Part shown: one piece after another, positions 24,574 through 37,066 of the stretch
Layout of the letters: each line of letters begins with the position of its first letter
Position numbering within the stretch: the first letter of the stretch is position 1
Origin: Candidatus Hydrogenedentota bacterium
Lineage (GTDB): Bacteria > Hydrogenedentota > Hydrogenedentia > Hydrogenedentales > SLHB01
Length of the DNA: 64,000 nt
Assembly (NCBI GenBank): GCA_045863295.1
Contig: BTWA01000012.1
Coordinates: forward strand, 64,001 to 128,000
Direction of reading: 5' to 3'
Notes under the pieces: model-generated
Database searches by the model: none
Told to the model about the DNA's origin: nothing
What the model saw: only the letters and a program-made list of their open reading frames with translations
Translations under genes and position numbers: made by a program

Positions 24574-26520
24574 ATGAGAATCCGAACAAAAACCGGGCTG
24601 GTGTTTGTTGGCGTCGTCGCGCCTTTGGTCTGCGCGGTATACGCGATTTCACAAATCATACTGCTGCGTCACTTCTCTCAAATCGAAGTGGCCGACGCCC
24701 GACGCACCATAGTACAGGTGGAAAACGTCCTCAAAGCTCGTGTGGAAGACCTCTCTGTACGGGTTGCGGACTGGGCGAATTGGGACGAAACGTACCGCTT
24801 CTTGCAAGACGCAAATCAGAGTTTCGTCGTCCAAAACCTGAATTCGGAGTCATTTGTCTACGGGTTGAATGTAAATTTTGCCGTTTTTCTTGACACGGAA
24901 CGTCGTGTAGTGCGCGTGGCTGGATTCGATTTGGAATCCGGCGAACCCATGGATCCCCCCGCAGAATTCCTGCACTCCCTCACTCCTGAAAACCCGTTAC
25001 TGACGGCAAGGCCTTCGGATTCGCCTGCGGCCGGATTTGCCTTTCTTGATGCCGGATTGCTGATGGTATCCGGATTGCCCGTATTGAAGAGCGATTTCAC
25101 GGGGCCGCCCACGGGGTACCTTGTCTTTGCCGTGCTGATGGACAGTCGGTACGTACGCAGTCTGGGTGATATGTTGGGACACACCATTGAAGTCTTAGCA
25201 CCCGGAGCCGGGATCAACCAAGGTGAGTATGATGCTCTCTTCGCGGAATTTAAGGCGAACAATGCCCCGCCGGTTTCGGTTCTGGACGACCGGCAAATCG
25301 CCGCATATTCATTTCTCACAGATGTTCACGGAAATCCGGGGTCCATACTACGAGTAAGTGTGCCTCGAGATACCTATCCACAAGGCGTGCGCGCTCTGAA
25401 TTTGCTGATGTTTGCACTGATTCTCGTGGGCGTATCCGTTTCCGTCGCCTCAATGCTGTTATGGGATCGTTTTGTACTGGCACGAATCGCGAGACTGAGC
25501 GCGGAAATTGCCGCGATCAGTCAAAGACGCAACACAGCGCAACGCGTCACCGTAAGCGGTAACGATGAAATCACCTCCTTCGAAACCATGATTAACGAGA
25601 TGTTGGAAACCGTGCATTCGGCAGAATCCGCACTAATGGAGAACGACGCCAGGCTTCGTGCCATTTTATACACGGCGGTGGACGGTATAGTTACAATCGA
25701 TGGAACGGGCGCTATTCAAAGTCTCAATCGGTCCGCGGAAGTCACTTTTGGATATGCACCCAACGAAGTCATCGGCCGGCGATTCGACATCCTTGTGCCG
25801 GACATCGATCCAGAACCACATACAAACCAGCCGGCAATGAATATGCAAGAGTATCTTGGATCGGGCCGGGAGGTTGTGGGACGCCGCAAGAATGGCGAAT
25901 CATTCCCATTGTATCTGGCCGTGAGTGAAGTACCCTTAAAGAACATGCACATATACTCCGCAATCATGCGGGACATCACGGTCGCGAAACGCAATGAAGC
26001 AAAACTAACGGAATTGGCCACAATTGACTCGCTCACAGGATTGAACAATCGAAGATATTTCCTGGAAAGACTAGAATTCGCCGTGGAGTCCAAGAAGCGA
26101 TTCGGCCATGCCATGTGTGCGGCGTACCTCGACGTTGACGAGTTTAAACAGGTCAATGACCACTTCGGCCATGCCGTAGGCGACGACGTTCTGGCGGCTC
26201 TGGGAAAGATCATTCAGGCCGAAGTGCGGAAAATCGATATCGCCGGCCGTTTGGGCGGCGACGAGTTTTGTATCGTGTTCATTCAAACTACGGCCAAAGC
26301 GGCATTATTAAGTGTGGACCGTATCCGGAAAGCCATAGAGGCCGTATCCTTTGGGCACGATGCCGCACGGCCTGTCCGAGTGACCATTACGGCGGGGCTA
26401 GCCGATATGCCGCAGGGTGAATGCAGCGCCAAATCACTTCTGGAAGCGGCGGATTCGGCCTTGTATAAGGCAAAAGAACTTGGCAAGAATCGTTGCGGTG
26501 TCTTCAACGAGCAATCATAG
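24574..26520 (+). CDS. Diguanylate cyclase (CHASE4-HAMP-PAS-GGDEF)
   Basis: DWANWDETY CHASE4 motif, second TM and HAMP, PAS ending RDIT, DSLTGLNNRR, RLGGDEF, I-site RKID. Confidence 0.92.
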   Translation: MRIRTKTGLVFVGVVAPLVCAVYAISQIILLRHFSQIEVADARRTIVQVENVLKARVEDLSVRVADWANWDETYRFLQDANQSFVVQNLNSESFVYGLNVNFAVFLDTERRVVRVAGFDLESGEPMDPPAEFLHSLTPENPLLTARPSDSPAAGFAFLDAGLLMVSGLPVLKSDFTGPPTGYLVFAVLMDSRYVRSLGDMLGHTIEVLAPGAGINQGEYDALFAEFKANNAPPVSVLDDRQIAAYSFLTDVHGNPGSILRVSVPRDTYPQGVRALNLLMFALILVGVSVSVASMLLWDRFVLARIARLSAEIAAISQRRNTAQRVTVSGNDEITSFETMINEMLETVHSAESALMENDARLRAILYTAVDGIVTIDGTGAIQSLNRSAEVTFGYAPNEVIGRRFDILVPDIDPEPHTNQPAMNMQEYLGSGREVVGRRKNGESFPLYLAVSEVPLKNMHIYSAIMRDITVAKRNEAKLTELATIDSLTGLNNRRYFLERLEFAVESKKRFGHAMCAAYLDVDEFKQVNDHFGHAVGDDVLAALGKIIQAEVRKIDIAGRLGGDEFCIVFIQTTAKAALLSVDRIRKAIEAVSFGHDAARPVRVTITAGLADMPQGECSAKSLLEAADSALYKAKELGKNRCGVFNEQS

Positions 26521-26552
26521 AAGCCCCGTAGGGTAGACCTCTGAATATTCGC

Positions 26553-26723
26553 TCATAAAGGCTGCTTTGGCACAAGTACTTGCGCTGATGTCGCGTTTCC
26601 GTCTTCAACATTCGTTGACACTTTGGGGAGATACGATTCAGGCGGTGCGTTCGTTGAAGTGAAGACGAGGAAGAGAAGGGCTAAAAGCAATGCAAGGCCT
26701 ATCCGCTTTGCCAAAGTGTTCAT
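26553..26723 (-). CDS. Possible small membrane/secreted protein, 56 aa (MNTLAKRIGLALLLALLFLVFTSTNAPPESY...)
   Basis: Basic N-terminus plus hydrophobic helix; 38 nt downstream of the sulfotransferase; weak RBS. Confidence 0.45.
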   Translation of the reverse strand: MNTLAKRIGLALLLALLFLVFTSTNAPPESYLPKVSTNVEDGNATSAQVLVPKQPL

Positions 26724-26761
26724 GAGAACAGTAATCCCTGAACCCTCGGCAGAGTTGCCGT

Positions 26762-27775
26762 CTATTCGCGCAACAAAACATCGCAGACCAGACGGGCCTT
26801 GCTCAGCACTCCCCGGAACATGCCGCCCTTCTGCGCCTGCGCACGGAGCCCCACGATGAGTTTGCGTTGCAGCCGGTAGCGCGTGAGGCCTGATGCGCGG
26901 CTGGCGACGCTCTTTCCTTGGACCTGTTCCAGTGCTTCCCAGAAACTCGCCGGAGGATATCCCCAGACGGTCAGATCCTCTTCGGCCAGCCGGTCGACAA
27001 TAGCCCGCATCATCGAGAGTTTCAACGGATCGGCCACCAATTCCGATGCCCACTTTTCGATAGATCCGGTCTGTGGCCGATCGTGCTGCGTGACGCCAAT
27101 GGGATCTCCCAGACCGTCTGAGTGCGCGGTTCCCGGCCGTTCGCCGTAATTGACCATCGCCGGTTCATACGGCACGCCGATGTAGGCACAGATTTCCTGC
27201 ATCCAAAGTTCGGGTTTCCGAACCAAATCCTCGTACCGCACATGAAATACTTGCGGATAGTCCCTCCGCAGAAAGTCCGCGATGGCGGGAACATACCGGT
27301 TCAACAAAGGATTGTAATTCTGTGCAGCCTGATAATTTCCATCAAAAAACGAATTGGCATACGATGAAAATACCGCCAATGGATGCCGAGTCAGTACAAC
27401 GTACTTCGCATCCGGAAACACCTTGGCGATAAACGGCAAAATGAGCGCGTACGCAGGCGTCTTGTCCAGGCAAATGTGCTTTCCGCTCCCCGCAATATAC
27501 GCTCCATATAGAGTGTCGCAATATGCGCGGCATGCTTTCCAATAGTCTGATTCGCCACCGGGCAACTTGCTGATGAATAGCTTTTGTGATTCCGCCGCCA
27601 GTACATGGTCATATGGGGCTTTGTCCACGTTGGCCCATACCCCCAAGTGCGCCAACGGGGTCAGCAAGTGCGGCTCGGGGCCGCCATGAATAAGGGAATG
27701 GCCTTCCAGCATGCGTTCCAGCATCGTGCTCCCCGATCGAGGGGCACTTATCACGAAAACCATGGGAACACTCAT
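26762..27775 (-). CDS. PAPS-dependent sulfotransferase family protein
   Basis: SAPRSGSTML (5'-PSB), LDKTP, RHPLAVFSS (3'-PB), VRYEDLV. Confidence 0.9.
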   Translation of the reverse strand: MSVPMVFVISAPRSGSTMLERMLEGHSLIHGGPEPHLLTPLAHLGVWANVDKAPYDHVLAAESQKLFISKLPGGESDYWKACRAYCDTLYGAYIAGSGKHICLDKTPAYALILPFIAKVFPDAKYVVLTRHPLAVFSSYANSFFDGNYQAAQNYNPLLNRYVPAIADFLRRDYPQVFHVRYEDLVRKPELWMQEICAYIGVPYEPAMVNYGERPGTAHSDGLGDPIGVTQHDRPQTGSIEKWASELVADPLKLSMMRAIVDRLAEEDLTVWGYPPASFWEALEQVQGKSVASRASGLTRYRLQRKLIVGLRAQAQKGGMFRGVLSKARLVCDVLLRE

Positions 27776-27977
27776 TGAATAAACGGCCCTTCCTAGTCGT
27801 CAACAGAGTAGCTGGAAGCGTAGTCACTGGGGCGAAGCATTTCAAATTGCACAGTGTTTCAATCGGCAGTGCAGAAGATCCCGTGGCTTTTGATATAGTC
27901 TGTCGCTTGTGACCGGAAAAGGCCATTGCCGATCCGGGAGTCCTGGTAACTTCAAGCATTGAACGGGCGGATGTAGT

Positions 27978-30900
27978 GTGAAAAATGTAAAACGTGTCGT
28001 CGTCAAGGCCGCCGTGTTTGGACTAAAGCTGGCTGTCGTTGTAGGCCTCTTTGTGTTCATTTTCCGGCCAGAAACCTTTGGATTTCGCGCTGACCTCTTC
28101 AAGAATATTACTCCGTGGACGATTGTCGAGACGTGCAAGCAACTCGATCCGGTCAACGTTCTTTTGTGGCTCGGCTTTGCTTCCATCGCCAAACTGACCG
28201 GAATAACCTGCGGTATTCTCCGGTGGAACCTTTTACTGAGAGGGCAGGGTCTCAAACTTCCTATGCTCTATTTGGCGAAATGTTGGTTCTGGGGGCGGGC
28301 CATTGGTTTGTTCCTCCCGGGCACCGTGGGATTGGACGGATACAGGCTTGTCGAGTCGTCCACCTTCACGCGCGAACCCATTAAATGTACATCCGTCATC
28401 GCCGTGGAAAAGCTTACCGGGTTCATTGCATTGTTTGGTCTGGTCTTTTTGACGGTTCCACTGGGACTTCGGGTATTCAACTTCAATCTTGCCATGCTGA
28501 CTCTGGTCCTACTCTGCCTCGCAGCATTCGTGTCGGTCACACTCATGTTGCTCATGAATCCACGAGTCATACAGGTATTGGCGGCAGCATTTCCCGTGCC
28601 AGCGCGTATCCGGGACAAAGTAAACAAGTTGGGCTTTGCCGTAACGGCCTACAGCGGTCAGCGCGCGAGATTGTTACTCGCTCTGTTGCTTGCCTTTGGC
28701 GTGCATCTTGGCATTTGTTTTATGTATTTCGGCACGGCCATGGCCATCAAAGCGCCAAACACATCGTTGCTGGATATTCTGTTTGCCAGCCCACTCGTGA
28801 TTGTCGCCTCGGTTTTCGGACCCACAGTGAGTGGCGCGGGAGCCCGCGAACTTGTGTTTGGCGCGCTGCTTGGAGATAAGTCCGGCATGGCGAATGCCGT
28901 GCTGTTCGGCCATCTGGGGCTCTGGATTGGCGAAGTCATCCCTCTGATAGTTAGCCTTCCGCTGCTGCTCACGTCTACTCGTCCCAAACGCGACGTGTTA
29001 CTGGAGGAAGTGGCAGACCTCCGTCATGCCATTGATGAGGCGGATCAATCCGTTCACTTGCCCGAGGCCGACGTAATGCGTTATCGAAATACCATCCTGA
29101 GTACCTTGCTTGCTGGTCTTGCGGCTGGCGGAATCGGCGGTGCATGCATCGGCTTTGTGGAAGCTTCCTGGGTAGCCAGCACATTGAGCGGCTTGTCCGA
29201 ATTGGGTGCGTTCTGGTGGGGGACAATTGTCTACGCCGTCCTATTTGGTGGACTCGGACTGGGGGTCGGTGCCGCACTGCTATTCTTCTATTTGATTGCC
29301 GACCGCCTGGGACCGGCTTCCGTTTCTTTTGGCATCACTTTGGGCACCATTCTAGCCGTGGGTGTCTTAATTATCGGCCGCTGGCGTTACCAGCGCGATG
29401 TGCTTATCGAACACGCCCTCAGCCGAAACGAAAACCTCGCTGTATTCGGCGCCGCATTGGCCGTCTTTGCCGTTGGATTTGCTGTTGGAGGAGGAATCGC
29501 ATTCGCGTTGCGCAATCGTACACCTCTCTGGAGTAGAGCGCTCGCGACAGGTGCCCTCATCGCCGTAATTGCCGCCGCATTCTTTCGATCAGCCATGTAC
29601 GTACCTGAGGCGGAACAACGGCAGTTTGATCCACTGCCCTCGGCACAAGGCCCGAATATCATTCTCGTAGCTATCGACACACTTCGAGCGGATTACCTGC
29701 GCGCCTACCGTCCTGACGCCAAGGCCTACACGCCGAACATAGATGCGTTTTTGGGCGATAGCGTCTTGTTTGCCAGCAGTTTCGCGCAATCCTCATGGAC
29801 CAAGGCTTCGTTCGGCACCATTTTTTCAGGAATGCACCCCCAAGCCCACAAAGCAGTCACCAAAAGCGCCTCGTTGCCCAATGACGTCGAGACTCTGGCC
29901 GAAGGATTGTTTGCAGGAGGCTATTACACCCAGGGTTTCCCCAACAACGCCAACATCTTTAGTGTGTTCAACTACGGCCAGGGATTTGTCCAGTACAAAG
30001 ACTTACTGCCTGACCGGTACTGCGGAGCCACTGAGTCGGCCGCCCGCCTTTCCCTGTATGAAGTCGTCCGGCGAGTCGTGGAAACTATAAACGCGAAAGT
30101 TCTTGGCGGACGCATTGTAATCAGCAACTTCTATCAGCCGGGTGAAGTGATTACGAAAACCGCGTTGGAATGGATCGACGGAGACGAGCGTCCGGCCGGA
30201 GCACCATTCTACCTCTTCTTACACTACATGGACCCGCACGATCCATTCCGGGATCCGGAAAGGCCTGGCAAAGGCTATGCACGTGTGCAACGTCCCAACC
30301 CCGATCCGGAAAAATTTCGCGAAGCGTTTATCCGGTCATACAACTATGAAATCGAATACCTGGATGAGCAACTGGGGAAATTGTTTCAAGGGCTGAAAGA
30401 CAGGGGTATCTATGACGATGCTCTTATCGTGTTTACTAGCGACCATGGCGAAGAATTTTGTGAGCACGGAGGTTTTTGGCACGGGCTTAGTCTCTACGAA
30501 GAACAAATCCGGATCCCATTGGCCATAAAGCTCCCTGGCAACAGGCACGCCGGCGCTCGACAGACACAAATCGCAAGACATATCGACATCGCGCCAACGA
30601 TTCTACTTACCGCTGGCCTGCAGCCCTTGCCCGCCATGCAGGGAGAGCCTCTATTTTCCTTTGACGGCAATCCCGTGGATAACAGCGTGTCCGAGACCTA
30701 CGCCCACCTCGATTTCGAAGGAATCCAGCTGAAGGCCGTCCGGACTCCGGAATCGAAGCTAATTACGTCCAACGAAAACAAAAGGAAGTATGCCCCGATT
30801 GAACTGTTTGATCTCCAAACGGATCCGGCTGAGAAAAACAACTTGGCAGGCAAAAACGTACCGTCGGAACAACAACTGCTGGACCTGCTGGATCAATTTC

Positions 30901-30998
30901 AGGAAACTGTCTCAATCGTAGGTGTCGCAAACGAACAGACAACGACGGTGGACAAGGCGACAGAAGAAGCGCTTCGCAGTATTGGCTATGGCGAATAA
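27978..30998 (+). CDS. Fusion: UPF0104/LPG-synthase-TM flippase-like domain + TM region + AlkP-superfamily sulfatase-like domain
   Basis: RWNLLL, LPGTVGLDGYR, SGAGARE; then PNIILVAIDTLRAD, SSWTKAS, HYMDPH, TSDHGE, HG..LYEE.IRIPL. Confidence 0.82.
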   Translation: MKNVKRVVVKAAVFGLKLAVVVGLFVFIFRPETFGFRADLFKNITPWTIVETCKQLDPVNVLLWLGFASIAKLTGITCGILRWNLLLRGQGLKLPMLYLAKCWFWGRAIGLFLPGTVGLDGYRLVESSTFTREPIKCTSVIAVEKLTGFIALFGLVFLTVPLGLRVFNFNLAMLTLVLLCLAAFVSVTLMLLMNPRVIQVLAAAFPVPARIRDKVNKLGFAVTAYSGQRARLLLALLLAFGVHLGICFMYFGTAMAIKAPNTSLLDILFASPLVIVASVFGPTVSGAGARELVFGALLGDKSGMANAVLFGHLGLWIGEVIPLIVSLPLLLTSTRPKRDVLLEEVADLRHAIDEADQSVHLPEADVMRYRNTILSTLLAGLAAGGIGGACIGFVEASWVASTLSGLSELGAFWWGTIVYAVLFGGLGLGVGAALLFFYLIADRLGPASVSFGITLGTILAVGVLIIGRWRYQRDVLIEHALSRNENLAVFGAALAVFAVGFAVGGGIAFALRNRTPLWSRALATGALIAVIAAAFFRSAMYVPEAEQRQFDPLPSAQGPNIILVAIDTLRADYLRAYRPDAKAYTPNIDAFLGDSVLFASSFAQSSWTKASFGTIFSGMHPQAHKAVTKSASLPNDVETLAEGLFAGGYYTQGFPNNANIFSVFNYGQGFVQYKDLLPDRYCGATESAARLSLYEVVRRVVETINAKVLGGRIVISNFYQPGEVITKTALEWIDGDERPAGAPFYLFLHYMDPHDPFRDPERPGKGYARVQRPNPDPEKFREAFIRSYNYEIEYLDEQLGKLFQGLKDRGIYDDALIVFTSDHGEEFCEHGGFWHGLSLYEEQIRIPLAIKLPGNRHAGARQTQIARHIDIAPTILLTAGLQPLPAMQGEPLFSFDGNPVDNSVSETYAHLDFEGIQLKAVRTPESKLITSNENKRKYAPIELFDLQTDPAEKNNLAGKNVPSEQQLLDLLDQFQETVSIVGVANEQTTTVDKATEEALRSIGYGE

Positions 30999-31327
30999 CC
31001 CCAAGTGAACTGCTGTAGTAACGCCCTAAGCCCCAGGGTTTCTATTGTAACCTGTTGTGTCGGCATGTTTTACGAATATGCAGCATGTGAAAAGGAAATC
31101 TTCTTACAAGTGGTTGCAAATTCCGCTCTATCTGTCTATCATTTCCCAAGTGGGCTTGGGGGAGCATGATGCCGTATCTCGCTGTCAGTCAAGAAATCTC
31201 TATTTGCCTGACGATTGCAACATCATGCTCGCCGTGTGGTAATATGATGCAGCTATGATTGGTCGGGGGTCTGGATACGGAACGCGTAACTCTTTGGGAA
31301 CGCGCATCGTAGGGAGAAGCCCAGCGC

Positions 31328-33037
31328 ATGCAGAAATTTAGCAAGCCGGTAGTTTTTTGCACCTTGGTACTGTTGGCCCTTGTCAGCAGTGGGTGCCCGT
31401 TCCTTACGCCCCCGAATTATCTTCCATCATTCCTCGTCACTCCTGACCTGCTCGTTTTCGGGAAAGGCGTGAATACGTTGACCTTTACCGTGGCCAAGTC
31501 GTGGACTTCCACCACGGTACCGCAGTTCACGGTCACTCCAAACCAGCCTTGGATATCGGTTACTCCGACTACCGGAACCAGCAGCGGGCCAAGCAATAAG
31601 GTTACAATTACAGTTACCTTGAATCGGTCTCTGTTGGGCGGGGGAGAGAATTCCGGCCAGATTGTCGTTTCAGCGCCCGGTGTCGCTCAGACAGTGGTTG
31701 ACGTTACCGCGGACTCCGTACTTTCGGCCAACTTCGTTGCCGACAAGACTAGCGCGGCGGTGAACGACACTATTCAGTTTACCGACCTGTCCTTGATCAC
31801 GCCCGAATCTGGACCAATCATCGCGTGGGAATGGGATTTCGGTGATGGTAGCCAGAGCACCCAGCGCCACCCTCGCCATGAATATGCTCTGCCCGGCCTG
31901 TACTCGGTTGAATTGACTGTTTCCACCGCGACTGTGACCAATACTCGCCGTCGAAGCAACTATATTCTGGTCACCGGACAGAAACCGATAGCGTCTTTTA
32001 CCGCCACGCCTCGCACAATCGATTCCGGTGATTCGGTGCAATTTACGGATTTGTCCGTGCCAGGATCTTCGCCCATTATTTCCTGGCTGTGGGATTTCGG
32101 CGACGGAGGCAACAGCACGCTCCAGAATCCGTCACATATCTATAGCGCCTTTGCAATCTATACAACCTACACGCTGTATAATGTGACACTGACAGTGTCC
32201 AATATCATTGGCTCGAATTCGAGACTGGAACCCAACTTCATCCAAGTGAATCACACCACGTCTAAGGCTCAATTTGGAGCAAACCCAACTGAGCCGGCAG
32301 ACGGAGAGACCGTGTTGTTCCAAGATATGTCGGAAGTCCCGGAATCGGCAACCACAGTCAAATATCTTTGGGAATTTGGTGACGGTGGGGTCAGCACGCT
32401 TCAGAATCCCACTCATACGTATGCTTCAACTGGGGCCCCTGCTGCCTACGACGTAAAACTTACAGTCGAAGCAGACGGCGTGTCCAGTTCGGTGGTCAAG
32501 AGCAGCTTCATCAAGACGGGTCCGGACGCTGCGAAGTTGGCCCAGCATGTAAACGCGGACGATCCAAGTTACTCGTTCAGTATTGTTGAAACGATATCGG
32601 CATCGACCTATACGGCCAGTTTGGTTCAATTCACTTCGCAGAAATGGCCAACTCCGGCTGGAAACGAATGGACTCATTGGCTTGTGCTCGTGGAACCAGC
32701 CAACCGCACGTTGGACACGGCGTTGCTGTATATTGGCGAGGCCGAAGGCGAGCCTGACGTGGAAAAGCAATACGTAGATGCCGCCATTGCGGCCCAGACT
32801 CCTGTGGCGGTGGTATACCAAGTACCCAATGAGCCGAACGACGGCTCGGAAGATCTGGTATACCCGATGGTCAAGAGTATCGTTGCGGCCATGGATACCG
32901 TTGACACCCTTGTGGCCTCTGATCCGGTGGACGGTTACATCATCAGCGGCAATGACTTACCGCTCTGGACCACCAGTCTCATCGGCGATTATGGGGACGC
33001 CCGAGTCAAAGGGGTCGAGGAGAATGTCGCACCCTGA
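31328..33037 (+). CDS. Lipoprotein with BACON-like domain, three PKD repeats and a degenerate PqaA-like C-terminal domain
   Basis: Lipobox SSGC; PWISVTP; WDFGDG, WDFGDG, WEFGDG; SQKW...WTHWL and PMVKS..AMDTV. Confidence 0.78.
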   Translation: MQKFSKPVVFCTLVLLALVSSGCPFLTPPNYLPSFLVTPDLLVFGKGVNTLTFTVAKSWTSTTVPQFTVTPNQPWISVTPTTGTSSGPSNKVTITVTLNRSLLGGGENSGQIVVSAPGVAQTVVDVTADSVLSANFVADKTSAAVNDTIQFTDLSLITPESGPIIAWEWDFGDGSQSTQRHPRHEYALPGLYSVELTVSTATVTNTRRRSNYILVTGQKPIASFTATPRTIDSGDSVQFTDLSVPGSSPIISWLWDFGDGGNSTLQNPSHIYSAFAIYTTYTLYNVTLTVSNIIGSNSRLEPNFIQVNHTTSKAQFGANPTEPADGETVLFQDMSEVPESATTVKYLWEFGDGGVSTLQNPTHTYASTGAPAAYDVKLTVEADGVSSSVVKSSFIKTGPDAAKLAQHVNADDPSYSFSIVETISASTYTASLVQFTSQKWPTPAGNEWTHWLVLVEPANRTLDTALLYIGEAEGEPDVEKQYVDAAIAAQTPVAVVYQVPNEPNDGSEDLVYPMVKSIVAAMDTVDTLVASDPVDGYIISGNDLPLWTTSLIGDYGDARVKGVEENVAP

Positions 33038-33182
33038 CGCGACCGAGAATTGAATTTGACGGGGGCAGGTGATCAATGAACCTGCCCCCGTTGTTTTTGC
33101 GATTGGTGTGGGAATCCCCGGTTGCAACGTGAACTGCCCTCGTGGAATACTCCCCCTATCTGGTGACTTGTCCATCACGGAA

Positions 33183-35627
33183 ATGGAATCTGCCGTGAGA
33201 TACCTTTTGATAGCAGCCTGTGGCTTCCTCATAGTCACTGCGTCGTATGCAAAGCCTCCTGAATCGGTAAGCTACAACGCTCACATTAAGCCCATATTAG
33301 CAAACAAGTGCTTCGCCTGCCATGGGCCCGACGCCAAGGCAAGGAAAGCAACACTTCGTCTGGATACCCAAGAGGGATCAAGATCCGCCCTACCTTCAGG
33401 GCTTAAGGCAATCGTGCCCGGCCGCCCGGAGGAATCGGAGATGCTGCGGCGCATCATGCACGCTAACCCCGAAATTAAAATGCCTCCCGCCGAATTTGAC
33501 AAGCCGGTTACGGAACAGGAGAAGGCGTTACTTTCCGAGTGGATTCGATTAGGTGGGGAATACGAGCAGCATTGGGCATTCATCCCTCCGTTAAGGCATG
33601 TACCACCGGGGCTGGAAAATGGGAATCCAGTCGACGCCTTTGTCCGCTCCAAGCTCGCGATAGAGGGAATTGGGCCTTCTCCTGAAGCCGACAGATCCGT
33701 GTTACTTCGAAGGGTCTACCTGGATATCGTCGGCTTGCCGCCACCCGAGGAAAAGTTGAATCAATACTTGGCTGACCAGGACCCGGGCGCGTACGAGCGG
33801 ATCGTCGACGAGTTGCTTGCGTCACCCCATTTTGGCGAACGTTGGGGGCGCCATTGGCTTGATGCCGCGCGATACGCCGATTCCAATGGATACAGCATCG
33901 ACGGACCCCGCACAATTTGGCCCTATCGCGACTGGGTCATTAACGCAATTAATTCGAATATGCCGTTCGACCAGTTTGTTACGGAACAACTTGCTGGCGA
34001 CTTGCTGGAGGATGCCACCCGGGAAAACCGCATTGCCACAGGGTTCAACCGCAATACCATGATTAATCAGGAAGGCGGAGTGGACAAGGAAGAATTCCGC
34101 ATTGAGGCGGTATTCGACCGGGTAAACACGGCCGGCACGGTCTTTCTTGGTCTGACCATGGCCTGCGCGAGGTGTCACGATCACAAATATGATCCCATTT
34201 CGCAGCGCGAGTACTTCGAGTTATTCGCGTTCTTCAACAGCGACGACGAAGTTGACTTGCCGCTTCCAACGACGCAACAAGCCGCAATAAAGGAGAAAAT
34301 TGATGCGCGGGTTGCGGAGGCCAACGATACCCTCAGTTCCTATCTCGCCGAAGCAGACAAGGCGGCCTTGCCAACTTGGGAAGAGTCCCTGACACTCAAG
34401 GAAATACGCACGTTCAGTCCCCAATTGCAAGAGGCGCTCTACACCCAGCCTACGGGGCGTACTCCTGACCAGGTGACACTTGTACGCGACCAGTTTAAAA
34501 AAACCGATCCCGGTGCTCAGGCGATTGTCTCGGAAATCGAGAAGATCCGGGCAGAAACCCCTGACATTATTACCACCCTTGCATTGACAAATCGTAAAGA
34601 TATTCGCCCTACGCATCTCTTCGTACAAGGCGACTTCACACGAAAGGCGGAGGAAGTCTTCTCCAGCGTGCCCGATGTGTTCGGAGATGACAAGACCAAC
34701 CGCAAAAACCGCCTGGATTTGGCTCAATGGCTGGTCGATCGCAATAATCCGTTGACGGCGCGGGTTACCGTGAACCGGTATTGGCAGGCGCTTTTTGGCA
34801 AGGGCCTTGTCGAAACTGAAAATGATTTCGGCACGCAGGGATCTCCCCCAACACACCCCGAGCTCCTGGACTGGCTTGCCGTGGAGTTTATGGAGGGCGG
34901 TTGGGATGTCAAGGCACTAGTGCGATTAATTTGCACGTCGCAAACGTATCGGCAATCGTCGAATGCACGCCCGGACCTGGCGGAGAAGGATCCCACAAAC
35001 AGGCTTCTTGCCCGGCAGAATCGGTTGCGCTTGGAGGCCGAGATCGTTCGCGACATAGCGTTGGCCTCGTCGGGCCTGATGCACGACAAAGTAGGCGGTC
35101 CCAGTGTATTTCCACCCCAGCCCGATGGCGTCATGGATTTAGGACAGGTTAAGCGTGAATGGACTCCGAGCGGTGGACCAGATCGGTACCGTCGTGGCAT
35201 GTATACGCATTTCTGGCGTGCCACTCCCCATCCCGGGTTGATGGTCTTCGATGCGCCGGACGCGCAATTCGCGTGCACAAGGCGTGTGCGCTCGAATACT
35301 CCGCTACAGGCGTTGACCTTGCTCAACGACGAAGCGCATTTTGAGTGTGCTCGCGCCTTGGCCCGGCAAACCTTTTTTTGGGAAGGCGCCTCCGACACCG
35401 ATCGTATACGGCGGATGACCAGGATTTGCTTGGGCAGGGAGCCGAACGCCGTCGAGACCGAGTTGATGCTCACCCTACTGGAGCGCCAAAGAAATCGCTA
35501 CTCAAATGCGCCCGATCAAGCCCGGGCGGTTTTTGCCACCGATGCGGCCATCGCAGCGGAAGGCGCCGCTTGGACCATGGTGGCCCGCACCATCTTAAAC
35601 TTGGACGAGTTCATTACACGGGAATAG
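33183..35627 (+). CDS. Planctomycete cytochrome c / DUF1549 / DUF1553 protein
   Basis: CFACH and CARCH heme motifs, GERWGRHWLD.ARYADS, PTHPELLDWLA, NTPLQALTLLN; start uncertain (33183 or 33195). Confidence 0.9.
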   Translation: MESAVRYLLIAACGFLIVTASYAKPPESVSYNAHIKPILANKCFACHGPDAKARKATLRLDTQEGSRSALPSGLKAIVPGRPEESEMLRRIMHANPEIKMPPAEFDKPVTEQEKALLSEWIRLGGEYEQHWAFIPPLRHVPPGLENGNPVDAFVRSKLAIEGIGPSPEADRSVLLRRVYLDIVGLPPPEEKLNQYLADQDPGAYERIVDELLASPHFGERWGRHWLDAARYADSNGYSIDGPRTIWPYRDWVINAINSNMPFDQFVTEQLAGDLLEDATRENRIATGFNRNTMINQEGGVDKEEFRIEAVFDRVNTAGTVFLGLTMACARCHDHKYDPISQREYFELFAFFNSDDEVDLPLPTTQQAAIKEKIDARVAEANDTLSSYLAEADKAALPTWEESLTLKEIRTFSPQLQEALYTQPTGRTPDQVTLVRDQFKKTDPGAQAIVSEIEKIRAETPDIITTLALTNRKDIRPTHLFVQGDFTRKAEEVFSSVPDVFGDDKTNRKNRLDLAQWLVDRNNPLTARVTVNRYWQALFGKGLVETENDFGTQGSPPTHPELLDWLAVEFMEGGWDVKALVRLICTSQTYRQSSNARPDLAEKDPTNRLLARQNRLRLEAEIVRDIALASSGLMHDKVGGPSVFPPQPDGVMDLGQVKREWTPSGGPDRYRRGMYTHFWRATPHPGLMVFDAPDAQFACTRRVRSNTPLQALTLLNDEAHFECARALARQTFFWEGASDTDRIRRMTRICLGREPNAVETELMLTLLERQRNRYSNAPDQARAVFATDAAIAAEGAAWTMVARTILNLDEFITRE

Positions 35628-35632
35628 TCTGC

Positions 35633-37066
35633 ATGCACGTCGATCAGGCCAAAATGTTACACCAGATTACTCGCCGCCATTTTTTCCGGGATTGCGGCGT
35701 GGGTCTGGGTTCCATCGCATTGGCCAATATCGTGGGATCTCCAAAGTCCGGCGCGGCACCGTTTCTAGCCAACCTGCACCATGCGCCAAGGGCAAAGAAC
35801 GTCATTTTTCTGTTCATGGCCGGTGGGCCAAGCCAACTGGAACTGTTTGATTATAAGCCGGTATTGCAGAAGTACAACGGACAGCCCATTCCTGCTTCCT
35901 ATATGGAAGGCAAACGCTTTGCCTTTATGGATACGTTCGCAAAAGAAACCCCCAAACTACTGGGCACCCGGCGTCAATTCAAACAACATGGTCAATGCGG
36001 TGCGTGGGTATCGGAGTGTCTGCCTCATACAGCCTCCATCGTAGATGAAATTGCCTTCATAAAGACCATTGCTACTGACCAGCCGAATCACGCGCCGGCG
36101 AAGATTTTCATGAATACCGGTTCCGCGCAATTTGGCAGGCCCAGCATGGGTGCCTGGATCGATTATGGTATCGGAAGCGAATCGAGCAGTCTGCCCGGCT
36201 TCATCGTGCTTCAATCCGGTCCACGTGGGCCTCGCGGTGGAGCGCCGCTTTGGGGAAGCGGCTTTTTACCCAGCGCGCATCAGGGAGTTCCCCTCCGGTC
36301 GACAGACGATCCCATTCTAAACCTTAGCAACCCCGACGGCGTGAGCGAAGGCGCGCAACGCGATGTTGTGGACACCGTAAACGCCTTGAATCGAGAACAT
36401 TTGGAGGTGACAGGCGATTCCGAGATCGCGGCGCGAATTTCCTCCTACGAAATGGCGTTCCGGATGCAGACCAGCGGGCCGGAATTGCTCGACTTTTCTG
36501 GTGAATCCGATGTGATAATGAATGCCTACGGGGCTAAGCGAGGCGAGCCTTCATTTGCCTATAATTGCATTCTCGCCCGGCGGCTTGTGGAGCGAGGCGT
36601 ACGGTTCGTACAGCTTTATCACACCAATTGGGATCACCACGGAAGCAAGACCGAAAATCTGACGACTCACTTGGATGAAGTCTGCCACGACGTGGACCAG
36701 GCAAGTGCGGCGCTGGTGATGGACTTAAAGCAACGCGGTCTGCTTGAAGATACGCTGGTCATTTGGGGTGGCGAGTTTGGCAGGACGCCGATGGGCGAAG
36801 TCCGCGACACAATTGGTCGCAATCATCATATACAGTGTTCCACTATGTGGATGGCGGGCGGAGGTGTAAAATCCGGTTTCACACTCGGCGAAACCGATGA
36901 ACTTGGATTCAACCCCGCAGTCGATCCCGTTCACGTGCATGATATCCACGCAACGATTCTCCATATCCTGGGAGTCGATCACCTCAAATTGACCTACCGG
37001 TTTCAAGGCCGGGAGTTCAGACTGACCGATGTGGCCGGAAACGTCTTGCATCCGCTTATCGCCTGA
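35633..37066 (+). CDS. DUF1501-domain protein (Tat substrate)
   Basis: TRRHFF Tat motif, FMAGGPSQ, ARRLVERGVRFVQ, WGGEFGRTP, RLTDV. Confidence 0.9.
   Translation: MHVDQAKMLHQITRRHFFRDCGVGLGSIALANIVGSPKSGAAPFLANLHHAPRAKNVIFLFMAGGPSQLELFDYKPVLQKYNGQPIPASYMEGKRFAFMDTFAKETPKLLGTRRQFKQHGQCGAWVSECLPHTASIVDEIAFIKTIATDQPNHAPAKIFMNTGSAQFGRPSMGAWIDYGIGSESSSLPGFIVLQSGPRGPRGGAPLWGSGFLPSAHQGVPLRSTDDPILNLSNPDGVSEGAQRDVVDTVNALNREHLEVTGDSEIAARISSYEMAFRMQTSGPELLDFSGESDVIMNAYGAKRGEPSFAYNCILARRLVERGVRFVQLYHTNWDHHGSKTENLTTHLDEVCHDVDQASAALVMDLKQRGLLEDTLVIWGGEFGRTPMGEVRDTIGRNHHIQCSTMWMAGGGVKSGFTLGETDELGFNPAVDPVHVHDIHATILHILGVDHLKLTYRFQGREFRLTDVAGNVLHPLIA

Follow-up and report, generated by a model that had tools for sequence, protein, structure and literature searches.

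Known members of the alkaline-phosphatase (AlkP) fold that use a threonine nucleophile are phospho-head-group transferases. LtaS/LtaP, EptA/MCR-1 and PbgA (YejM) carry an outward-facing AlkP domain on an anchor of five transmembrane (TM) helices, and to our knowledge none of them has a fused flippase domain. In MprF, a lipid is modified inside the cell by an enzyme and exported by a fused or partnered PplT domain, the fused aminoacyl-PG synthase domain being cytoplasmic. PplT domains occur fused to many enzyme types, and the available text passages of the preprint describing this contain no occurrence of ‘sulfatase’ that would point to a sulfatase-fold fusion (10.1101/2022.03.11.483950).

Sulfatase-fold proteins that add sulfate are described for archaea. 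Agl30 (VNG1056C) and Agl31 (VNG1057C) of Halobacterium salinarum are needed for N-glycan sulfation and, when moved to Haloferax volcanii, are sufficient for it (Zaretsky et al. 2025, PMC11980604). According to the available passages of that paper, one of them is cytosolic, the other is membrane-associated and has one predicted TM segment, so that they provide no periplasmic precedent; the sulfatase-fold proteins are themselves called sulfotransferases, and those passages name no classical PAPS sulfotransferase (PMC11980604). Compared by this description, they resemble the locus reported here as AlkP-superfamily sulfatase-like proteins that add, rather than remove, sulfate on a lipid-linked uronic-acid glycan, and differ from it in that our locus has a classical sulfotransferase as partner and a sulfatase-fold domain predicted to face outward.

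The window, i.e. the whole stretch of 64,000 nucleotides that was analysed, comes from an uncultured Hydrogenedentota bacterium and contains the following features:

26553..26720, minus strand: hydrophobic ORF of 55 aa, separate from the sulfotransferase (ORF in the window)
26762..27775, minus strand: PAPS-type sulfotransferase (ST), 337 aa, P0001 (ORF call and Pfam)
27776..27977, no strand: divergent intergenic region, 202 nt (gap between the ST and fusion genes)
27978..30998, plus strand: flippase/sulfatase-fold fusion, 1006 aa, GTG start (ORF call and Pfam)
27978..28988, plus strand: MprF/PplT-type flippase-like domain, residues 1-337, eight TM helices (Pfam and structure alignment)
28989..29063, plus strand: acidic linker helix, residues 338-362, predicted cytoplasmic (AlphaFold and charge count)
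29064..29600, plus strand: five TM helices anchoring the AlkP domain, residues 363-541 (hydropathy, AlphaFold and PbgA match)
29601..30998, plus strand: sulfatase-fold (AlkP-superfamily) domain, residues 542-1006, predicted extracytoplasmic (Pfam and structure matches)

The ORF coordinates agree with the divergent gene pair and 202-nt gap given in the initial annotation. Its starting point of 26553 had to be corrected, as the ST gene ends at 26762 and the 55-aa ORF beyond it is a separate one, with no counterpart behind ST in 46 other ST loci. No promoter-like sites were detected inside 27776-27977, their count across 26400-31400 was not above that of shuffled sequence, and no 9-mer was common to more than three of 11 orthologous intergenic regions.

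Domain organization of the sulfotransferase and the fusion protein

The predicted signal-less PAPS sulfotransferase was confirmed as a Sulfotransfer_3 protein (Pfam, E 6.9e-35) with the PAPS loop PRSGST at residues 12-17; its N-terminus lacks a hydrophobic stretch, and it is a cytoplasmic enzyme. A basic C-terminal tail (residues 296-337; 10 K/R versus 2 D/E in 42 residues) is kept in orthologues that are 61-69% identical. The nearest solved relatives by profile were the ST domains of OLS (4gox, 2.3e-22) and CurM (4gbm, 6.1e-20), followed by TPST1/2 (TPST 1e-13), and Foldseek returned the same relatives. A partial match to the NCBIfam model NoeE (E 4.8e-26) reached 91 bits, far under the cut-off of 500, and ST was therefore rejected as a NoeE equivalog. 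Among these closest proteins by profile and fold (the CurM and olefin-synthase domains, the tyrosylprotein sulfotransferases and NoeE/NodH), the former two are parts of polyketide synthases whereas the window's ST is free-standing, and the conserved basic tail is unique to ST. As the CurM and OLS domains and the TPSTs act on acyl-carrier-protein-bound hydroxyacyl chains or protein tyrosine, homology gives no pointer to a lipid or glycan acceptor, which counts against a joint envelope-modifying module.

The fusion had been described as joining an LPG-synthase-TM domain, further TM helices and an AlkP-superfamily domain in 1006 aa, and Pfam and structure matches substantiated this. LPG_synthase_TM matched residues 16-299 (E 1.1e-11, 45.2 bits versus a cut-off of 33.4), and residues 6-337 aligned with residues 26-338 of MprF (6lvf_B; VIA-align Z 24.2, rmsd 3.8 Å, 287 residues aligned), indicating the flippase-domain fold of the PplT/YbhN/UPF0104 family (PF03706). 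The aminoacyl-PG synthase domain of MprF is absent, and whereas the fused enzyme of MprF is cytoplasmic, that of the present protein is predicted outside the membrane. AlphaFold placed a linker helix at residues 338-354, with low pLDDT at 353-359, and residues 333-362 contain 4 K/R versus 7 D/E. In the anchor region, hydropathy peaks at residues 382, 426, 458, 502 and 531 corresponded to AlphaFold helices 363-402, 411-441, 447-475, 483-510 and 516-540, giving 13 TM helices for the whole protein by both methods. Residues 362-984 aligned with full-length PbgA (6xlp_A, residues 1-585) at Z 33.4 over 455 residues, albeit with a high overall rmsd of 14.9 Å. The helix count and the MprF and PbgA matches place the AlkP domain, by prediction, outside the cytoplasm, as the earlier model had anticipated.

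Pfam recognized Sulfatase at residues 559-880 (E 2.9e-39) and SGSH_C at residues 829-961 (E 7.9e-15). The best sequence and structure matches, over residues 554-985, were S1 sulfatases and phosphonate monoester hydrolases (6hr5, 7p24, 4uph, 2vqr), with S1 sulfatases at Z 35-41 (top 6hr5, Z 40.6); PbgA, LtaP and LtaS followed at Z 29-33 (periplasmic domain of PbgA, 6vat, 32.3; LtaP 31.1; LtaS 29.2), then EptA (24.0) and MCR-1 (23.6). The Foldseek ranking agreed, and the NCBIfam LtaS, EptA and YejM models scored far under their cut-offs on the fusion. The soluble domain is thus closer to formylglycine sulfatases, whose C-terminal SGSH_C subdomain it keeps, than to LtaS or EptA, which weighs against a module of the LtaS/EptA type; with the LtaS/EptA/PbgA group it has in common the five-helix anchor, the outward AlkP domain, a Thr at the nucleophile position and the D/D-H metal site.

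Retention of the metal ligands (D567, D822 and H823) and replacement of the formylglycine motif by SSWTKAS, both noted initially, were borne out by alignments with 7p24, paralogues and 22 homologues. Thr608 of SSWTKAS aligned with the Cys/Ser of C/S-x-P-x-R in the solved sulfatase 7p24 and, within the same genome, with the formylglycine-motif Cys of about 20 Cys-type paralogues. S1 sulfatases have the same metal ligands and the same conserved His in P-H-x-P. Unlike them, the fusion is embedded in the membrane, and its motif carries Ala in place of Pro. F612, N656/N657 and H835 occupy the positions of the CxPxR Arg and of two Lys that the Cys-type sulfatases of this genome retain; we take these three replaced residues to be the sulfate-binding residues of S1 sulfatases. 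D567, T608, D822 and H823 were invariant in 22/22 full-length homologues (about 50% identity), as were W607, K609, H749, H754, E825, E826, H830 and H835, which argues for catalysis.

Linkage, distribution and gene neighbourhood

Of 135 genomes, 120 carried ST and 124 a fusion-type match; with each gene present in nearly every member of the order, their joint occurrence tells little by itself. Both were missing from eight in-order genomes (G119, G121-G125, G029 and G046), six of which are small (2.8-3.6 Mb) and come from three genera within a single family, so that these six may go back to one or two loss events in the course of a general reduction of the genome. Two out-of-order genomes (G001, G002) lacked ST, and their fusion match was a soluble sulfatase-domain match only. 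Single genes were found in eight genomes, four of them at least 92% complete: ST without fusion in G090, G031 and G052, and fusion without ST in G015, G058, G060, G065 and G080.

Of 76 loci, 26 had ST no more than 8 kb from the fusion; among the 31 that were fully flanked (7 kb or more on either side of the fusion) the figure was 11, the other 20 having no ST within that distance. Among about 117 species genomes with both genes, hand tabulation gave 25 in which they are direct neighbours and 37 in which they lie no more than 3.5 kb apart. Pairs within this limit spanned seven families (f1, f2, f6, f7, f9, f10, f11), with no such linkage in f3 and f8. Three arrangements occurred: the genes diverge, run in the same direction with ST upstream (G085, L064), or have ST downstream of the fusion with one gene inserted between them (G062, G067, G068, G069, L027, L032, L039); proximity therefore survives rearrangement. 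The expected linkage was thus found to be partial but non-random, recurring across the order while in about two thirds of the genomes the genes are not close. This large distance, the single-gene genomes, the unlinked families and the possibly few losses behind the joint absences all speak against a common module.

Synteny around the fusion was otherwise poor, ST being its sole widely recurring neighbour (24 locus ids including the window, among the window and 76 further loci; the gene family that came next had 11). Genes for a glycosyltransferase, a lipid synthase or an acceptor were not conserved next to the pair, a further point against the module. APS kinase is encoded in the same genome as the window; it lay at most 300 nt from ST in 10 genomes, and APS kinase, ST and fusion stood in a row in four cases (G003, G004, G006, L053). 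In one sub-clade, UDP-glucose dehydrogenase followed the fusion at -79 to 48 nt in 11 loci (one of them on the opposite strand), an NAD epimerase gene also followed, and RmlC flanked ST. A UDP-glucose/GDP-mannose dehydrogenase gene was found in 3 of 20 unlinked ST loci and adjoined ST in L089.

Possible roles of the gene pair

The initial annotation proposed a trans-membrane sulfation relay, in which a lipid carrier would be sulfated inside and flipped, and the group then transferred to a surface glycan, protein or lipid. Spelled out, a sulfolipid made by ST would be exported by the flippase domain, and Thr608 would take over the sulfuryl group as a Thr-O-sulfate and hand it on to the acceptor outside the cytoplasm, standing in for PAPS, which is absent outside the cell. 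The architecture, predicted topology and partial linkage in this model held, and neither of two observations that would have refuted it, an AlkP domain in the cytoplasm or a lack of conserved linkage, was made; its sulfate-transfer part did not fare as well, given the replaced Arg and two Lys, and we regard such a relay as unlikely. Alkyl sulfates are poor sulfuryl donors, and we know of no enzyme that transfers sulfate via a Ser or Thr ester. The relay draws on the same linkage, topology and PAPS-supply evidence as phospho-head-group transfer, on the descent of the AlkP domain from the sulfatase branch and on the role of Agl30/Agl31 in archaeal N-glycan sulfation, but the available passages of the Agl30/Agl31 paper name neither donor nor nucleophile, the terms PAPS, donor, threonine and formylglycine having no occurrence there (PMC11980604). 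A less unlikely, but still doubtful, reading keeps both proteins in one pathway without a hand-over: the fusion would be a self-sufficient transferase of phosphoglycerol or phosphoethanolamine from PG or PE, its flippase domain supplying the donor lipid or recycling diacylglycerol, and ST would separately sulfate the same final polymer or a cytoplasmic precursor, the genes being neighbours through co-regulation. The architecture of LtaS, EptA and PbgA agrees with this reading, the nucleotide-sugar genes that surround the pair in one sub-clade suggest that the product is a glycan, and loose, often lost linkage is expected of accessory decoration steps; it does not account, however, for ST being the one gene that recurs next to the fusion, where a glycosyltransferase or polymerase would be looked for, or for the absence of both genes from eight genomes.

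That the AlkP domain is no transferase at all, being a hydrolase that trims an exported lipid or glycan head group or a PbgA-like lipid-binding sensor with only an indirect link to ST, appears improbable: the anchor and AlkP domain align as a whole with PbgA/YejM and most of the fold's sulfatase branch is hydrolytic, but the invariance of the metal ligands, Thr608 and the eight further residues runs counter to it, and a fused flippase fits the supply of a substrate better than a sensing role. We give equally little credence to the adjacency being an inherited gene order devoid of functional meaning; every linked genome belongs to one order and linkage has been lost in two thirds of the genomes, yet the pair is close in seven families and three arrangements despite the poor synteny, and both genes are jointly absent in eight genomes.

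A putative envelope modification module

The reading that we tentatively prefer, while holding it open to considerable doubt, is a two-part cell-envelope modification module of Hydrogenedentota with LtaS/EptA-like phospho-head-group transfer. It builds on the arrangement of the domains, on Thr608 occupying the nucleophile position, on the topology as predicted and on a linkage that is partial but recurs; the phyletic pattern of the two genes, the APS kinase genes near ST and the nucleotide-sugar genes around the pair also speak for it. Working at the inner membrane face, where its conserved basic tail may keep it, the cytoplasmic ST would transfer sulfate from PAPS to an acceptor bound to the membrane, which would be the head group of a lipid or a sugar linked to one. 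By homology, the MprF-like domain would bring the sulfated lipid into the outer leaflet, in the way MprF handles the product of its own synthase, and such a hand-over from ST to the fusion is plausible. The metal-activated Thr608 of the outward domain, held by a five-TM anchor as in LtaS, EptA and PbgA, would then attack the lipid and pass on its head group, which is probably phospho-linked and may carry sulfate, to an acceptor in the envelope, without hydrolysis of sulfate. The group transferred outside may be a phospho-linked head group rather than sulfate itself, and the two proteins together probably decorate a lipid or sugar of the cell envelope.

The sulfotransferase and the fusion protein

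The window (G000:C12:64001–128000, from a 6.3 Mb source assembly that is 96% complete) carries both genes described in the initial annotation, a sulfotransferase (ST) gene and, at a spacing of 202 nt according to the ORF coordinates, a gene fusing a flippase-like domain to an alkaline-phosphatase-superfamily (AlkP) domain. The left edge given there, 26553, was misplaced, as these coordinates assign it to a separate hydrophobic ORF and not to ST.

Open reading frames of the locus (window coordinates)
26553–26720, minus strand: ORF of 55 aa with one strongly hydrophobic segment, starting 42 nt behind the ST stop on the same strand
26762–27775, minus strand: ST gene (P0001, 337 aa)
27978–30998, plus strand: fusion gene (P0002, 1006 aa)

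The 55-aa ORF was rejected as a conserved third component, since no comparable ORF was present behind ST in 46 other ST loci. Examination of the divergent intergenic region revealed no conserved operator, any 9-mer being common to at most three of 11 orthologous regions, and promoter-like matches were not commoner than in shuffled sequences. A CHASE4-PAS-GGDEF diguanylate cyclase is encoded just beyond ST (24574–26520, plus strand); as it occurs in only two of the 76 related loci among the matches listed, it was placed outside the ST–fusion unit. At 33069–37066 (plus strand), the gene for an 852-aa PSCyt1/PSCyt2/PSD1 protein precedes one for a DUF1501 protein, a pairing characteristic of Planctomycetota-like genomes; DUF1501 itself belongs to the alkaline-phosphatase superfamily.

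ST matched Pfam Sulfotransfer_3 (PF13469; E 6.9e-35; 121.7 bits, cut-off 27) and, as proposed, is signal-less: its N-terminus starts directly at the PAPS loop PRSGST, and the sequence contains neither a signal peptide nor a TM segment. The motif P-K/R-x-G-S/T-T is the 5'-phosphosulfate-binding loop of PAPS-dependent sulfotransferases, and this loop in the orthologue alignment, together with the Pfam domain above cut-off, identifies ST as a member of that class. Its 23 orthologues share 61–69% identity (mean column identity 76%), with P12, R13, S14, G15 and T17 invariant in all 23, and have in common a basic C-terminal tail (RYRLQRKLIV..LR..AQ.GG.FRKLL.K.RLACDVLLRE; 10 K/R against 2 D/E in 42 residues) that possibly takes part in membrane or partner binding. 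Among solved structures, ST is closest to the sulfotransferase domains from the olefin synthase and CurM polyketide synthases (4gox, 2.3e-22; 4gbm, 6.1e-20) and to tyrosylprotein sulfotransferases, in agreement with Foldseek on the ST AlphaFold model (pLDDT 76); the relatives found bear sulfotransferase names, with PAP-bound entries among them. The model of the nodulation sulfotransferase NoeE (NF052394) matched residues 5–139 only and scored 91.4 bits, far short of its cut-off of 500. Homology points to no acceptor for ST.

In the fusion, Pfam recognized LPG_synthase_TM (PF03706) at residues 16–299 (45.2 bits, cut-off 33.4), Sulfatase at 559–880 (E 2.9e-39) and SGSH_C (E 7.9e-15). In the AlphaFold model, computed from 22 homologues (pLDDT 80.4), the first 332 residues contain eight helices; a linker helix (338–354), five long helices (363–540) and an alpha/beta domain come after them. 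Hydropathy analysis yielded the same 13 segments. This model was aligned against 48,161 PDB representatives.

Structural matches of the fusion model
Residues 6–337: MprF flippase domain, 6lvf_B (Z 24.2, rmsd 3.8 Å, 287 aligned)
Residues 362–984: full-length PbgA/YejM, 6xlp_A, chain 1–585 (Z 33.4, 455 aligned, rmsd 14.9 Å, so that no residue-by-residue superposition of the TM part is established)
Residues 554–985: S1 sulfatases, 6hr5 (Z 40.6, rmsd 2.5 Å, 351 aligned; best match for the soluble domain)
Residues 554–985: LtaP and LtaS (Z 31.1 and 29.2)
Residues 554–985: EptA (Z 24.0)

A single-sequence PDB search with residues 1–545 gave no match to MprF, the predicted relationship being visible only by Pfam and structure. 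The MprF flippase domain has both ends in the cytoplasm, and the five helices of PbgA put its domain in the periplasm; from these topologies and the 13 TM helices the AlkP domain of the fusion is predicted to face outwards, in line with the initial annotation. The fusion shares with MprF and PplT proteins a PF03706 domain above the curated cut-off and the MprF flippase fold, whereas the C-terminal cytoplasmic aminoacyl-PG synthase domain of MprF proper is absent according to Pfam, the C-terminal part being a sulfatase fold instead. With the LtaS, EptA and OpgB type the fusion shares a five-TM anchor N-terminal to the catalytic domain and the predicted location of that domain outside the cytoplasm. 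The scores with the NCBIfam equivalogs of LtaS, EptA and YejM were far below the cut-offs (32.9 against 970, 23 against 561 and 26 against 825 bits, respectively).

Active site of the AlkP domain

Alignment with 7p24 bore out the reported absence of a formylglycine motif, Thr608 occupying the formylglycine position and T-K-A-S-F standing in place of C/S-x-P-x-R. The fusion has the alkaline-phosphatase-like fold and the C-terminal subdomain of S1 formylglycine sulfatases but not their C/S-x-P-x-R motif. Among the ~40 sulfatase-fold genes of G000, ~20 have C-x-P/A-x-R in the same columns as T-K-A-S-F of the fusion, and six, the fusion included, have W/L-T-x-P/A-S. An alignment of these six Thr-type with 12 Cys-type G000 paralogues shows, at the level of sequence, a coherent switch between the two types.

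Corresponding columns in the paralogue alignment
Cys-type D-D; Thr-type D-T-L-R-x-D
Cys-type C-x-P-x-R; Thr-type W-T-x-P/A-S
Cys-type Lys of G-K-W; Asn in the fusion, varied among the Thr-type, with Lys kept in the gene on contig C33
Cys-type Lys before Y-E-G-G; Thr-type His
Absent from the Cys-type; Thr-type H-x-x-D-P-H-x-P
Absent from the Cys-type; Thr-type D-H-G-E-E-x-W-x-H

The motif Arg, the G-K-W Lys and the Lys before Y-E-G-G bind sulfate in S1 sulfatases, and the R, K and K of most Cys-type G000 paralogues are replaced by F612, N656/N657 and H835 in the fusion. D567, T608, K609, H749, H754, D822, H823, E825, E826, H830 and H835 are invariant in 22 homologues at ~50% identity. As judged from alignments, the Thr nucleophile position and a single metal site (D567 and the pair D822-H823) are shared with LtaS, EptA and OpgB. 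Based on the invariant residues and the paralogue alignment, the AlkP domain is very probably catalytic; it is no formylglycine sulfatase, and the basic Cys-type residues have been lost from it.

Further Thr-type sulfatase-fold genes of G000 (W/L-T-x-P-S/A)
C59:6324–7373
C33:51172–52059
C5:178486–179862
C29:28024–29199
C7:57973–59202

Three of these five lie in open frames of 680–726 aa, which is enough length for a membrane anchor. The two other Sulfotransfer_3 genes of G000, on C44 and C25, share a contig with none of these five. Source annotations of the fusion family read only 'sulfatase-like hydrolase/transferase' or 'arylsulfatase A-like enzyme'.

Linkage, distribution and neighbouring genes

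Fusion neighbourhoods were compared at 76 loci taken from the best 80 matches of the contig scan; among the matches listed, almost all are labelled Candidatus Hydrogenedentota, and Atlas clusters similar to the fusion are labelled mostly Myxococcota. Again among the matches listed, an ST orthologue lies ≤8 kb from the fusion in 26 of the 76 loci, and in 11 of the 31 loci with ≥7 kb on both sides. All-against-all ORF clustering of these loci and the window found members of the ST family at 24 locus ids, window included, as against only 11 for the next commonest neighbour family and ≤10 for the others, among the matches listed.

At the genome level, ST was found in 120 of the 135 species genomes of the phylum (81 of the 86 of high quality) and fusion-type matches in 124, those of the only genomes outside the order (G001 and G002) being limited to the soluble domain and the best matches of G005 and G047 being perhaps paralogues. 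ST occurs without the fusion in G090, G031 and G052, and the fusion without ST in G015, G058, G060, G065 and G080. Both are missing in eight in-order genomes (G119, G121–G125, G029 and G046; completeness 78–91%), of which six, all small, come from three genera within a single family and may reflect just one or two losses.

Distances were tabulated by hand from the two genome surveys for the ~117 genomes with both genes, which share a contig in 39; the gap is <1 kb in 25 pairs, 1.1–3.5 kb in 12 and 8–14 kb in 2. The 37 close pairs are distributed over families f1 (20), f2 (3), f6 (1), f7 (5), f9 (1), f10 (5) and f11 (2), and none at ≤3.5 kb was seen in f3 and f8 in this tabulation. The orientation is mostly divergent; in G085 and L064 the genes are co-directional with ST upstream, and in f10 (L027, L032 and L039) ST is downstream of the fusion with one gene inserted. 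The conserved linkage anticipated earlier is therefore real in that it recurs in seven families and three arrangements, but it does not extend to the two thirds of genomes in which the genes are unlinked. Proximity that persists through rearrangement, where synteny is otherwise poor, argues for selection. This has to be read with the unlinked majority in mind, with the fact that ST and the fusion are core genes of the order, and with the possibly few losses behind the joint absences. That the synteny is meaningless we consider, given the recurrence, very unlikely.

APS kinase, the maker of PAPS, is encoded in G000 and lies tail to tail with ST at ≤300 nt in 10 genomes (G003, G004, G005, G006, G049, G081, G086, G087, G114 and G115) and ≤1.5 kb from it in two further ones (G050 and G074); APS kinase, ST and fusion form a row in G003, G004, G006 and L053. 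Its presence was rejected as a discriminating marker because 132 of 135 genomes have it, including most of those without ST and fusion, and only its adjacency to ST is informative. In one sub-clade (L006, L007, L011, L013, L014, L016, L022, L024, L030 and others), a UDP-glucose/GDP-mannose dehydrogenase gene is located 3' of the fusion in 11 loci, at −79 to 48 nt and once on the opposite strand. It is followed by an NAD-dependent epimerase gene, a dTDP-4-dehydrorhamnose 3,5-epimerase gene flanks ST, and genes for a nucleotidyltransferase-HAD fusion and a GDSL-like protein are close by. The APS kinase and nucleotide-sugar neighbours point to PAPS-dependent chemistry and an envelope glycoconjugate, and name no acceptor.

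Where ST is not near the fusion (20 loci compared), its neighbours were conserved among close relatives only. A sulfate-type CysA ABC ATPase gene is present in four of these loci, a UDP-glucose/GDP-mannose dehydrogenase gene in three (directly adjoining ST in L089) and a beta-lactamase-fold membrane protein in four loci of one genus. In this genus (g53; L082–L085), ST is divergent, in four genomes, with a 644–726-aa beta-lactamase-fold protein whose C-terminal region is hydrophobic (e.g. L085:8433–10367, plus strand); three of the four have the fusion elsewhere, and none was detected in the remaining one (G049/L082–G056 set, member G052 aside).

Several other arrangements were observed. L011 (6045–6908, minus strand) and L013 (5889–7856, minus strand) have, between ST and fusion, a second sulfotransferase-family ORF or a ~317-aa N-terminal extension of the ST frame, which may be a tandem duplication. 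A 675-aa FGE-sulfatase and BNR protein is encoded a few kb from the fusion in L040, L045, L046, L057, L069 and L070 (e.g. L057:13279–15306, minus strand); a formylglycine-generating-enzyme-like domain is odd beside a 'sulfatase' unable to use formylglycine. Downstream on the opposite strand, L057, L058, L069, L070, L071 and L073 encode an 881-aa Na/Pi-cotransporter and PhoU protein (e.g. L070:1725–4370, minus strand), whose end overlaps that of the fusion by 3 nt in four of seven copies.

Possible function of the pair

The reading that we tentatively prefer, as the best supported, is that of a hand-over module patterned on MprF. ST would take the role of the cytoplasmic MprF synthase and modify a membrane-bound acceptor, the PplT domain of the fusion would export the modified acceptor, and the outward Thr-type domain would transfer the head group via a covalent Thr intermediate, as LtaS, EptA and OpgB do with phospholipids. 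To our knowledge, all characterized Thr-nucleophile members of the sulfatase fold are phosphotransferases, and this, with the replacement of the basic Cys-type residues, favours transfer of a phospho-head group over sulfuryl transfer.

The direct sulfuryl relay of the initial annotation, in which the Thr domain itself passes on sulfate, appears improbable. In its favour, the sulfatase-fold proteins Agl30 and Agl31 were genetically needed, and sufficient in Haloferax, for N-glycan sulfation (Zaretsky et al., 2025; PMC11980604), but that article names neither donor nor nucleophile, and of Agl30 and Agl31 one is cytosolic. Somewhat less unlikely, though still behind the hand-over module, is that ST and the fusion act in parallel on one polymer with no hand-over. 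Complex prediction with alignments for ST and fusion residues 1–545 scored 0.00 in both of two runs, which speaks neither for nor against direct binding. That the AlkP domain is a hydrolase or a PbgA-like sensor seems as remote as a meaningless synteny: the structural match to PbgA would agree with a sensor, the invariant putative catalytic residues would not.

No published account of a flippase–sulfatase-fold fusion was found, nor any paper pairing UPF0104 with a sulfatase. The PplT preprint (10.1101/2022.03.11.483950) gives other PplT fusions, and 'sulfatase' is absent from its text, figures excluded; in the matching passages of PMC10866078, sulfotransferases are listed only as a means of producing sulfated polysaccharides. 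Both PplT-fused enzymes and transferases of the LtaS/EptA type are known kinds, and nothing short of a true sulfate relay would make the module new in category. What is new is the recurrent linkage of the fusion to one highly conserved ST, in some genomes also to APS kinase, across an order; to this come the eight genomes that lack ST and fusion alike, and the structural evidence behind the predicted topology.

As far as we know, PAPS is confined to the cytoplasm, which makes it a puzzle how bacteria could sulfate envelope molecules on the far side of the inner membrane or otherwise alter their charge. The module combines, in one testable unit, a classical sulfotransferase with a flippase domain for lipids and a predicted outward Thr-type sulfatase-fold enzyme, and its two genes are near-universal in a whole uncultured order. 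It is doubtful, though conceivable, that it represents the first bacterial trans-membrane sulfation relay, in which ST loads a lipid, the MprF-type domain flips it and the Thr domain passes sulfate or a sulfated head group to the envelope. If true, such a relay would define a class of lipid-linked donor not described before, comparable to the lipid-linked sugars and phospho-alcohols that serve as donors outside the cytoplasm, and would give a function to a large group of Thr-type 'sulfatases'. Since Thr-type genes (six of the ~40 sulfatase-fold genes in G000) are routinely annotated as sulfatases, sulfated-polysaccharide degradation is overestimated in such phyla, and the function of even one of them would correct many annotations.
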